Positions 1-3,249 of a stretch of DNA of 4,435 bases are shown here, piece by piece; positions within the stretch are counted from its first letter, which is position 1, and every line of letters begins with the position of its first letter. The notes under the pieces are model-generated. The model worked only from the letters and a program-made list of their open reading frames with translations. It ran no database searches and was not told the DNA's origin. The position numbers were made by a program, and so were the translations under genes. Source of the DNA: a virus. Its lineage: Duplodnaviria; Heunggongvirae; Uroviricota; Caudoviricetes. Where the stretch lies: positions 1 through 4,435 of IMG/VR virus record IMGVR_UViG_2548876863_000003. One strand, 5' to 3'.

Positions 1-20
1 CAAAAACCCGTTATCCGGTG
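1..20 (-). terminator. Possible weak intrinsic terminator downstream of the repressor gene (minus-strand RNA ...CACCGGAUAACGGGUUUUUG)
   Basis: On the minus strand a short GC stem (CCGG/CGGG around a GAUAA loop) is followed by a U5 run. The stem is only 3-4 bp and the element lies at the window edge. No ORF continues leftward on the minus strand: all three frames hit stops at 11-13, 40-42 and 72-74. Confidence 0.2.
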
Positions 21-103
21 AAACGCAGCACCGCTCCGCTTAAGTGAACGGCATTGGACGCTAAGGTCGGGTTATTGTTGTGTGTTTTAGAGTGGTGAGG
101 CTG

Positions 104-757
104 TTAACTAAATGTCTCTTCAGGCCACTGGCTGGCGATAACTTTCCCTACTACGGAACAGCTATCATTGCATGGAATCATTGGATATTGCGGGTTTAGT
201 GGTTGTAGGAACACCTGACCGCTATCCCTGATCAGTTTCTTGAAGGTAAACTCGTCACCACCAAGTCTGGCTATGCAGAAATCACCTGGCTCAACAGCCT
301 GCTCAGGGTCAACGAGAATTAACATCCCGTCAGGAAAGCTTGGCTTGGATCCTGTTGGCGCGGTCATGGAATTACCTTCAACTTCAAGCCAAAACGCACA
401 ATCACTGGCTTTTTTGGTTGTGCTGACCCATCTCTCCGCATCACCTTTGGTAAAGGTTCTAAGCTCAGGCGAGAACATACCGGCCTGAACATGAGAAAAA
501 ACAGGGTACTCATATTGTTTTTTAACGGGGGCAGATGAGTATTCGCCAACAGGTGAAAATGTACCGTCGTGGTTGAATGAGACGTTATCAATACCAAGGT
601 ATTTAAACACCACACCAATCTCGTCAAGAGATGGATGACGAGATCCGCGCAACCAGTGACCAATTCCACCCTGCGTCATACCAAGCTCTTCGGCTAACTT
701 CTCTTGAGTTATGCCGAGCTCTTTCATTCTGGATCTAGCCAGTTCATACCATTTCAT
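104..757 (-). CDS. cI: CI-type prophage repressor: N-terminal XRE-family helix-turn-helix domain plus C-terminal S24 (LexA/CI) self-cleaving peptidase domain
   Basis: The ORF track gives 104..805, but that ORF begins with TTG. I place the start at ATG 757 ([18 protein letters not shown]...) because AAGGG lies 7 nt upstream; ATG 763 and ATG 799 are alternatives. The C-terminal domain carries the S24 hallmarks: a QAG Ala-Gly self-cleavage site, a GNSM serine motif and a GKVIASQW lysine motif. From [12 protein letters not shown] to the end it is near-identical to the phage lambda CI C-terminal domain as recalled from memory (only about 3 substitutions). The N-terminal HTH domain is unrelated to lambda's. 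The stop is TAA at 104-106. Confidence 0.9.
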
Positions 758-874
758 TTTCATACCCTTATTATTACGCTCTGTACTAAAATCATCCATG
801 CACAAGATGTATTTTTTGTTTGCATTCTAAAAGTACATATCGTATTATTGCGTTATGGTTACTATGGAGGGCAT
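758..874. promoter_or_regulatory. Divergent immunity control region (OR-like operators with PR-like and PRM-like promoters) between the repressor and cro
   Basis: Position between divergently transcribed repressor and cro genes, AT-rich. Candidate rightward promoter: -35 TTGCAT (820-825), 17-bp spacer, -10 TATTAT (843-848), then GGAGG (866-870) and cro ATG at 875. Candidate leftward -10 is TAGAAT on the minus strand (829-824). Individual operator sites could not be resolved by eye; there are short inverted AGTACA/TGTACT elements at 782-787 and 832-837 and TATTATT(A/G)CG repeats at 768-779 and 843-852. Confidence 0.5.
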
Positions 875-1090
875 ATGAGCAACCTACGAAAATATCGAGA
901 GTCACTGAATATCTCTCAAACAACACTTGCTAAGGCAGTTGGATGCACACAGGGAGCTATCGGACATTGGGAATCTGGTCGTCGCTTCCCAGACCTTAAA
1001 ACATGCCGTGCTCTTGTTGCGTGCCTAAACAAGTTAGGCGCAAAAGTCAGTCTTGATGACGTGTTCCCGCCGGAACACAAAGCCGCTTAA
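875..1090 (+). CDS. cro: Cro-like small HTH repressor (71 aa, XRE family)
   Basis: ATG at 875 with GGAGG 4 nt upstream; 71 codons; stop TAA 1088-1090. The HTH is ISQTTLAKAVGCTQGAIGHW, and its recognition helix (TQGAIGHW) closely matches that of the divergent repressor (TQGGIGHW), as expected for a repressor/Cro pair sharing operators. The protein ends in KAA. It is the 3' part of tracked ORF 704..1090, whose 5' extension overlaps the repressor start and is not credible. Confidence 0.85.
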   Translation: MSNLRKYRESLNISQTTLAKAVGCTQGAIGHWESGRRFPDLKTCRALVACLNKLGAKVSLDDVFPPEHKAA

Positions 1091-1100
1091 TAAGCGGATC

Positions 1101-2361: not shown

Positions 2362-3249
2362 ATGGCACGTTCAAGAAATATCAAACCAGGCTTTTTCACC
2401 AATGATGAATTAGCTGAGTGTTCTCCATATGCCCGTCTCCTTTTTGCCGGGTTATGGACTATTGCTGACAAAGAAGGGCGGTTGGATGATCGCCCAAAGA
2501 AAATTAAAGCAATGGTACTGCCTTTCGATGATGTGGACTGCAATGATCTGCTTCAGCAACTTCACAGTCACAAATTCATCAACCGATATCAGGTAAATGG
2601 CGGCTCATATATCCAAATCAATAACTGGAAAAAGCACCAGAACCCTCACTGCAAAGAAGCTGCCAGTGAGATACCAGAACCAGTAGAGAACAATAACAGC
2701 ACCATGCAAGTACAGTGCAATGACGATAAAGGGGAAGAGAAGGAGGATGCAGAATCACTTCAAGTCATTGAAAACAATGAAGCACCAGAAAAGCACCATG
2801 CAAGTACAGTGCAAGAACAAGTTGAGAACAGTTTAAATCCTGCTGATTCCCTTAACCTGATTCCTGATTCCCTTAACCTGATTCCTGATTCCCTTTCTAA
2901 CACCCAAGCCGCTGACGCGACTTGTGAAGGGGGTGGGGCTGATGTCCATAAAATTTCAAGTCGCTATGCATTCGAAGGAAATATCGTTCGGTTAAACCAC
3001 AAGGATTACGAAGCATGGAAGCGCCTGTATCCGAACATTGACCTGAATTACGAGCTGGAAAGGCTGGATATCGAATTTAGCCATGAGAAGCCAAAGAACT
3101 GGTTTATCACTGCCAGCCAGAAACTCAGCTACCAGAACAAGCAGGCGTTATCCAGACCGGTACGCAAGGTTGCTAATGGACTTAAGGCTGAAAACTTTGC
3201 CACCAAGGATTACGGACAAACTGAAATGCCTTCATGGGCGCAGGAGTGA
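2362..3249 (+). CDS. Putative replication initiator (functional analogue of lambda O): conserved N-terminal domain, acidic low-complexity linker encoded by repeat DNA, C-terminal domain
   Basis: ATG 2362 with AGGTGG (2351-2356) 5 nt upstream; the tracked ORF starts at GTG 2353. Stop TGA 3247-3249. It lies immediately upstream of, and is translationally coupled to, the DnaC-like loader. The central region (about aa 95-200) is E/N/Q/D-rich low complexity and coincides with the DNA repeats at 2698-2901. The family assignment is not resolved from sequence alone; the protein is not lambda-O-like in sequence. Confidence 0.65.
   Translation: MARSRNIKPGFFTNDELAECSPYARLLFAGLWTIADKEGRLDDRPKKIKAMVLPFDDVDCNDLLQQLHSHKFINRYQVNGGSYIQINNWKKHQNPHCKEAASEIPEPVENNNSTMQVQCNDDKGEEKEDAESLQVIENNEAPEKHHASTVQEQVENSLNPADSLNLIPDSLNLIPDSLSNTQAADATCEGGGADVHKISSRYAFEGNIVRLNHKDYEAWKRLYPNIDLNYELERLDIEFSHEKPKNWFITASQKLSYQNKQALSRPVRKVANGLKAENFATKDYGQTEMPSWAQE
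2698..2720. repeat. Copy 1 of a 23-bp exact direct repeat AGCACCATGCAAGTACAGTGCAA
   Basis: Identical 23-mer at 2698-2720 and 2792-2814, offset by 94 bp (not a multiple of 3), so the two copies are translated in different frames (STMQVQC versus KHHASTVQ). The conservation is therefore at the DNA level. Confidence 0.8.
2792..2814. repeat. Copy 2 of the 23-bp exact direct repeat AGCACCATGCAAGTACAGTGCAA
   Basis: See copy 1; exact match read directly from the sequence. Confidence 0.8.
2843..2901. repeat. Tandem 21-bp repeats (CTGATTCCCTTAACCTGATTC x2 plus a partial third copy), an iteron-like array
   Basis: Units at 2843-2863 and 2864-2884 are identical; the third (2885-2901) diverges after CTGATTCCCTT. 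The core CTGATTC occurs five times (2843, 2857, 2864, 2878, 2885) with alternating 14 and 7 bp spacing. The array encodes DSLNLIP-DSLNLIP-DSLSN in the initiator linker. Confidence 0.8.

Follow-up and report, generated by a model that had tools for sequence, protein, structure and literature searches.

Is the repressor gene of this prophage a genuine mosaic, with a lambda-type C-terminal domain joined to a DNA-binding domain of another type, and, if it is, where does the junction lie, how might it have arisen, and which immunity does the protein belong to? The initial annotation of positions 104-757 had proposed such a fusion. We examined the question in the whole stretch of DNA that carries the gene (4,435 nucleotides; the window), which covers the early control and replication genes of a lambdoid prophage of E. 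coli. The evidence makes it very probable that 104-757 is a functional-looking cI of VT2-Sakai-type immunity, and it shows the gene to be a mosaic. Its C-terminal domain is lambda's (94% at the nucleotide level) and its DNA-binding domain, together with the operators and Cro, is of another type, so that the proposed chimera stands.

The cI gene and its two domains

The features of the gene and its divergent paralogue are as follows.

104..757, minus strand: cI repressor gene (open reading frame; Pfam HTH_3 and Peptidase_S24; relatives labelled repressor cI or LexA family protein)
107..514, minus strand: lambda-type C-terminal module (aa 82-217), with cleavage-site region, S24 autoprotease and dimerisation/cooperativity domain (lambda identity; PDB matches)
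239..241, minus strand: Lys173 codon, general base, equivalent to lambda Lys192 (alignment; invariant)
368..370, minus strand: Ser130 codon, nucleophile, equivalent to lambda Ser149 (alignment; invariant)
479..484, minus strand: Ala92-Gly93 codons, scissile bond, equivalent to lambda Ala111-Gly112 (alignment; invariant columns)
515..757, minus strand: N-terminal DNA-binding domain and proximal linker (aa 1-81), VT2-Sakai type (identity to Stx-phage CI; no lambda nucleotide similarity)
653..676, minus strand: CI recognition helix TQGGIGHW (aa 28-35; translation, HTH_3 match, Cro alignment)
875..1090, plus strand: cro, 71 aa, HTH_3, recognition helix TQGAIGHW (aa 25-32, positions 947-970; open reading frame, Pfam, CI paralogue)

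The reading frame closes with a stop codon at 104-106 and offers three candidate ATG codons on the minus strand, at 757, 763 and 799, which give products of 217, 219 and 231 amino acids, respectively. RefSeq and many other database entries use the 231-residue form that begins at 799 (cluster representative P0001, which stands for 1,686 sequences). The additional segment overlaps candidate operators OR3 and OR2 and is missing from divergent CI homologues (P0008, P0015 and P0036), which begin at the short position (MKWYEL). The call at 799 is therefore probably an over-extended start, and we infer that translation more likely begins at 757 or 763.

Pfam profiles recognised both expected domains. 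HTH_3 matched residues 9-56 (E = 8e-11; score 42.2 bits, cut-off 23), and Peptidase_S24 (PF00717) matched residues 85-207 (E = 9e-29; score 100 bits, cut-off 23.3) over the full length of the profile (1-116 of 116). The Ala-Gly cleavage site and the Ser and Lys motifs, which the initial annotation had recognised, are indeed in place: the counterparts of A92-G93, S130 and K173 in lambda CI are A111-G112, S149 and K192 (mature numbering), and the four residues are invariant among 14 diverse CI homologues. The combination of helix-turn-helix, Peptidase_S24 domain, Ala-Gly bond and Ser/Lys pair identifies the product as a predicted autocleaving repressor of the LexA/CI type.

The C-terminal domain had been described as almost identical to that of lambda CI, and the comparison bears this out. 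BLASTP against lambda CI (NC_001416) found 133 of 136 residues identical from YEYPVF to the C-terminus; the only differences (window CI/lambda CI) are C120/S140, D198/E218 and S217/G237. At the nucleotide level, blastn aligned window positions 110-514 to lambda cI at 93.6% over 405 nt without a gap, and beyond this interval the first 1,100 bases of the window gave no significant lambda match. Within coding codons, 24 of the nucleotide changes are synonymous and 3 codons differ non-synonymously, a pattern that points to a domain under strong purifying selection and yet young at silent sites. The best PDB matches to the protein were by far those to lambda repressor (3bdn, E = 2e-96), with the lambda C-terminal domain structures 8gmu, 2ho0 and 1f39 also matched and LexA structures reached at E of about 1e-6 only. 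The same 136 residues are 98% identical in the CIs of lambda, HK97 and SfI, including the region covered by 1f39, 2ho0 and 3bdn, and the nearest C-terminal domains of other phages stand at 79-88%. The domain is thus far closer to lambda than to other S24 repressors, the comparison on which the chimera proposal depended, and its sequence places it in a lambda cI C-terminal allele pool shared with HK97.

The N-terminal domain is a different matter. Neither blastn nor a comparison in 30-nt bins detected nucleotide similarity between this region and lambda, and the two domains share only about 25% of their amino acids overall in the BLASTP alignment (23% of the lambda N-terminal residues are matched when the cluster representative is used). 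The view that the domain is unrelated to lambda's nevertheless goes too far. The lambda N-terminal domain structure 1lli gave a weak match (E = 5e-4), and in the helix-turn-helix about 12 of 27 residues are identical (GM.Q.G.G....G), among them Gln, the first residue of the recognition helix. Judged by these alignments, the domain is a diverged homologue of lambda's within the HTH_3 fold family. Its close relatives are the CIs of Stx phages, at 96-100% amino acid identity; the next, after a wide gap, are those of Salmonella phages at 54%. Identity reaches 96.3% over 81 residues with Stx1-converting phage, 1717, YYZ-2008 and the PA series, and the coding DNA differs from VT2-Sakai-type relatives at 11-13 sites per 243 nt.

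A recognition helix common to CI and Cro had also been noted, and it is confirmed (TQGGIGHW versus TQGAIGHW). The similarity extends to 40% identity over 47 amino acids (E = 9e-12), which marks Cro as a paralogue of the CI N-terminal domain. Such an arrangement is familiar from 434 and P22, in each of which the N-terminal domain of the repressor forms a paralogous HTH_3 pair with Cro, the two having nearly the same recognition helix and binding the same operators. The P22 C2 and 434 repressors themselves show marginal similarity to the window CI (PDB, E = 0.01-1), and neither has a C-terminal domain of lambda type. Lambda Cro gave no alignment with the Cro of the window at E <= 100. With an N-terminal domain, operators and a Cro that are not of lambda type, the module would fall outside the lambda immunity group.

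The first codon of the CI recognition helix is CAG or CAA (Gln) in Stx1-converting phage and in the window. In the VT2-Sakai record AP000363 an in-frame TAG takes its place at about 2068-2070 (MT*GGIGHW), and the cI of that record is annotated only as a truncated gene of 510 bp.

Operators and the surrounding region

The following elements lie around cI and cro.

1..56, plus strand: right end of an IS4-family element (1,429-bp element; transposase 3' end at 1-47; absent from the uninterrupted relative L008, otherwise 99.9% identical)
57..68, unstranded: 12-bp target-site duplication GACGCTAAGGTC (in the cI terminator hairpin of uninterrupted relatives)
772..788, unstranded: candidate OR3, TATTACGCTCTGTACTA (homologous to a putative operator of AP005153; zero-mismatch motif match)
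798..814, unstranded: candidate OR2, ATGCACAAGATGTATTT, the weakest match (AP005153 annotation; motif)
819-848: PR-like promoter TTTGCA-18-TATTAT (promoter-like site; overlaps OR1)
831..847, unstranded: candidate OR1, AAGTACATATCGTATTA (AP005153 annotation; motif; overlaps the PR-like -10 element)
1232-1528, divergent from cI: CII-family gene (Pfam)

The putative operators annotated in AP005153 have near-identical counterparts within window positions 772-847. A motif with the consensus ANTACRNNNTGTAYT matches all three candidate OR sites and also three candidate OL sites between N and cI in L008. Spacing is similar in the two clusters, with 26 and 33 bp in OR and 25 and 34 bp in OL. The motif is enriched in L008, with 30 matches against 11.5 expected (a count reached in 0 of 200 shuffles), and weakly so in the window alone, with 9 matches against 3.4 expected (reached in 6 of 200 shuffles). 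A scan of the OR region for palindromes (17-mers with at least 6 of 8 symmetric pairs) returned no site, and the operator calls consequently rest on the AP005153 annotation, the clustering of the motif and the matching OL and OR spacing. The candidates are 17 bp long and only partly symmetric, about A-K-TAC-N5-GTA-Y-T. They are unlike the six annotated lambda operators, being of the type TAKTAC-N5-GTAMTA whereas those of lambda are of the type TATCACCGC, although the outer half-sites are alike (TATCAC in lambda; TATTAC or TAGTAC in the window). Note also that OR2 and OR1 are spaced by 33 bp, against 24 bp in lambda, so that pairwise cooperativity in the style of lambda is not guaranteed.

Besides the CII-family gene, the genes for an HNH-domain protein, a 295-aa protein, a DnaC/IstB-like ATPase and a small MarR-like protein run divergently from cI. 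No Pfam family matched the 295-aa protein (open reading frame 2362-3249), whose gene lies between those of the HNH-domain protein and the ATPase. Within this reading frame, at 2843-2895, the 21-bp unit CTGATTCCCTTAACCTGATTC is repeated directly and without mismatch, 2.5 copies being present (score 106). In lambda, the ori iterons lie inside gene O. The placement of the repeat recalls them and makes it a candidate, by analogy, for what may be the replication origin of a non-lambda replication module. At the 3' end of cII, positions 1466-1524 are 98% identical over 59 nt to lambda and to vB_EcoP-683R2, and the remaining cII DNA is not lambda-like. We take this segment to correspond to the lambda region that encodes the antisense OOP RNA; a search of the whole window against Rfam at gathering thresholds matched no family, there or elsewhere.

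The 3' side of cI differs from that of lambda in lacking rexAB and from that of uninterrupted relatives in carrying the IS4-family element. In L008 a strong intrinsic terminator (-12.4 kcal/mol, z = -4.1) lies just 3' of cI, its loop and stem falling at the insertion site. The insertion, 35 bp past the cI stop codon, splits this hairpin, which eliminates the cI terminator, and displaces OL by about 1.4 kb, so that OL and OR are about 2.26 kb apart instead of about 0.82 kb (as measured in the matching genome). A match at 100% over the entire window was found in one genome only, that of E. coli OkiPb01684 (isolated from bovine faeces in Japan), save for an added IS3-family element there; from position 57 onward the window is also 99.9% identical to the Stx1a prophage of strain 2013C-3250. 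OkiPb01684 (L009) harbours two IS3-family copies, at 7599-8812 and 9953-11166, one of which breaks the gene of the DnaC-like ATPase. Both are missing from the window, which therefore derives from, or represents, a close relative that lacks them.

These insertions bear on whether the gene is a decaying remnant, the cI of a defective prophage that controls no viable phage and whose chimeric structure has no current function. The presence in OkiPb01684 of an IS4-family element beside cI and of IS3-family elements in the replication region would agree with decay, as would the in-frame stop in the recognition helix of AP000363. In the window, however, the cI reading frame is intact and every catalytic residue is kept, and cro, cII and three reading frames of the replication module are uninterrupted. 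Identical or nearly identical cI genes are moreover found in the plaque-forming isolates vB_EcoP-683R2, Dewey, Louie and phi458. Even defective prophages, besides, normally retain a working repressor. We consider decay an improbable account of the locus and favour that of a functional-looking repressor.

The junction and its origin

The initial annotation had placed a recombination junction in the interdomain linker, and the nucleotide breakpoint against lambda falls there. Identity drops from 100% to random at 514/515, a codon boundary between Q81 and Y82. In 30-nt bins it is 81-100% on the 3' side of the junction, the first 30 nt being at 100%, and 10-40% on the 5' side. The breakpoint lies ten codons ahead of the Ala-Gly bond and directly before YEYPVF. 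The other end of the segment shared with lambda is the cI stop codon, and the 3' flanks of cI in lambda, HK97, Stx1-converting phage and the window proved mutually unrelated.

The comparison with HK97 delimits the variable interval. Homology to this phage extends over 104-514 (94%) and resumes at 1100, continuing to 1512 (91%). The interval 515-1099, which covers the N-terminal domain, OR and cro, is the only one between these flanks that is not homologous to HK97. It therefore constitutes a specificity cassette, with its right end at 1099/1100, set between conserved flanks. To judge from these alignments, the pattern is the one expected of homologous recombination that swaps immunity regions, in which crossovers in the flanks (C-terminal coding sequence on the left, nutR-cII on the right) would replace the specificity cassette. 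HK97 was itself considered as a lambda-heteroimmune phage with a chimeric cI, and this was rejected, its CI being of lambda type throughout.

The C-terminal alleles carry a further signal. Measured from the window, this coding segment differs at 24 nucleotides in HK97, 29 in lambda and 36 in a Sakai-type allele, and it is this last that shares the N-terminal domain type of the window. Variable sites among the alleles form patchwork patterns, and the alleles are not partitioned by immunity type. Such mixed and patchwork alleles point to repeated exchange within the domain and argue against a single ancient fusion. An assembly artefact behind the shared segment was rejected, as complete genomes by the hundred contain the module.

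Could the same structure have arisen by vertical descent without recombination, the C-terminal domain being conserved by selection while the N-terminal domain diverged rapidly towards a new specificity? The N-terminal domains of the window and lambda CIs are distant homologues, and the excess of synonymous changes (24, against 3 non-synonymous codons) speaks for purifying selection on the C-terminal domain; both would suit such a history. Synonymous sites of the C-terminal domain are however also 94% conserved, the N-terminal DNA is at random level, and the switch between the two takes place within one codon. Furthermore, proteins with N-terminal domains of the same class at 79-86% identity (from Citrobacter and others) carry C-terminal domains at only 79-85%, not 98%. 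The complete difference of the cI 3' flanks between phages, and the failure of C-terminal alleles to sort by N-terminal type, are equally at odds with it. Descent without recombination is thus highly improbable, and an exchange of the specificity cassette remains the preferred origin.

A large protein collection showed that C-terminal domains of the lambda family (79-88%) are joined to at least three classes of N-terminal domain: lambda-like, Sakai-like and VT1-Sakai/mEpX1-like. The Sakai-like class includes a subclass at about 50% in Salmonella, Enterobacter and Kluyvera. A donor lineage for the C-terminal domain was sought among 120 homologues, and none was singled out, nor was a direction of transfer between lambda and Sakai types, the closest outgroup C-terminal domains standing at 79-88% whatever the N-terminal class. 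The CI of Lambdavirus PDP110P1 (P0111, OZ035751.1 38085-38726) shares with the window a lambda-identical distal C-terminal segment but differs from it in having an N-terminal and proximal C-terminal domain of VT1-Sakai/mEpX1 type. Its identity to lambda starts about 40 residues further in than that of the window CI, which places its junction inside the protease domain and not in the linker.

Comparable chimeras have been described. The repressor of 933W has an N-terminal domain close to that of HK022 and a C-terminal domain equal to that of H-19B, an example of mosaicism down to single domains, and its C-terminal domain was reported to be non-cooperative (PMC3202840). In the epsilon34 repressor, the C-terminal domain is about 80% identical to those of lambda and HK97 and the N-terminal domain about 50% identical to those of L, VT2-Sa and Nil2 (PMC2629481). 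Both show shuffling at the linker as in the window CI, with different partners. As summarised in a 2023 paper (PMC10742460), Fattah et al. (2000) found high C-terminal and low N-terminal homology between the CIs of VT2-Sa and lambda, and the CIs of Eru2/Eru3 Stx phages ('Clade I') were reported to be the nearest to lambda CI, with 61% of residues identical overall (PMC8951638). Beyond these four sources (PMC10742460, PMC2629481, PMC3202840 and PMC8951638), little further explicit account of the chimera was found in the literature.

A widespread immunity module and its predicted behaviour

The chimera had been taken to signal a new immunity specificity, and this part of the proposal fails. The cI-operator-cro module is already known as the VT2-Sakai-type immunity (the 'Clade I' of Stx-phage CIs), described around 2000. 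Over 60 phage records contain the same cI-OR-cro block at 92.9-99.1% nucleotide identity, among them VT2-Sakai, Stx1-converting phage, Stx2 II, Nil2, 2851, 1717, YYZ-2008, the PA series and 2B8, and the non-Stx carriers vB_EcoP-683R2, 720R6, Dewey, Louie and phi458. A search of 5,426 complete E. coli genomes recovered cassette 515-1090 in 776, or about 14%. With VT2-Sakai-type relatives, one continuous alignment at 92.9% covers window positions 104-1098 and spans OR and cro. VT2-Sakai (Sp5), Stx1-converting phage, Stx2 II, Nil2, 2851 and 1717 share the CI architecture, the operators, cro and the lambda-type C-terminal domain with the window, their cI-cro DNA being 92.9-93.7% and their N-terminal domain 96% identical to it. 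The window allele has its own subgroup, 98-100% identical, made up of 683R2, 720R6, Dewey, Louie, phi458 and E. coli 2013C-3250. In contrast to the Stx 'Clade I' phages, the window joins this module to a different replication module, that of the HNH protein, the protein without known family and the DnaC-like ATPase.

The biochemistry of lambda CI is established, including dimerisation and cooperativity through the C-terminal domain and self-cleavage stimulated by RecA. The mechanism proposed here is drawn from the 98% identity of the C-terminal domain to that of lambda. Dimers of CI would bind the three 17-bp OR and three OL operators through the N-terminal helix-turn-helix, with dimerisation and cooperative contacts predicted to come from the lambda-type C-terminal domain. 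Upon DNA damage, activated RecA would stimulate self-cleavage at Ala92-Gly93 by the Ser130/Lys173 dyad. Cleavage would part the two domains, operator binding would be lost, and the prophage would be induced. Cro, with its near-identical recognition helix, would compete with CI for the same operators.

How separate this immunity is from that of lambda deserves attention. Fattah et al. (2000), again as summarised in PMC10742460, reported cross-immunity between lambda and VT2-Sa, and complete heteroimmunity is consequently not to be assumed. EMSA measurements put the binding of lambda CI at 3.7-6.4 µM for VT2-Sa operators and at 0.2-3 µM for its own (PMC10742460). The C-terminal domains are 97-100% identical among CIs of lambda type, of Sakai type and, in at least one case, of VT1-Sakai type. 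Many E. coli strains carry several lambdoid prophages, and we raise as a tentative and rather unlikely possibility that in such strains the repressors assemble into mixed dimers, tetramers or octamers through the domain they share. If they did, the stability and SOS induction thresholds of formally heteroimmune prophages, Stx phages among them, would become coupled, which could also explain the cross-immunity reported for lambda and VT2-Sa. On this view the common domain would be both an interface for cross-talk, maintained by selection, and a convenient place to recombine.

Taking this one step further, one might hold that cross-talk is the main selected role of the protein, mixed oligomers with lambda-type CI in polylysogens and not a separate immunity being what it is maintained for. 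The C-terminal identity of 97-98% across two immunity types, the cross-immunity attributed to Fattah et al. in PMC10742460 and the micromolar binding of lambda CI to VT2-Sa operators seen by EMSA in that source would all favour such a role. The window, however, has a full operator set, a Cro and a PR-like promoter of its own, which suffice for an autonomous switch, and the mixed dimers are deduced from identity only. We give this interpretation very little credence, and an autonomous repressor of VT2-Sakai type remains the one we adopt.

Overall, the window illustrates domain-level mosaicism in textbook form, with N-terminal domain, OR and cro as one cassette, and it represents no new kind of system. 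The present analysis adds modestly to the literature the exact junction at 514/515, the mixing of C-terminal alleles, and PDP110P1 as a third chimera. Its biological weight lies in the distribution of the module: a CI of VT2-Sakai type controls the induction, and hence the release of toxin, of many Stx1 and Stx2 prophages.
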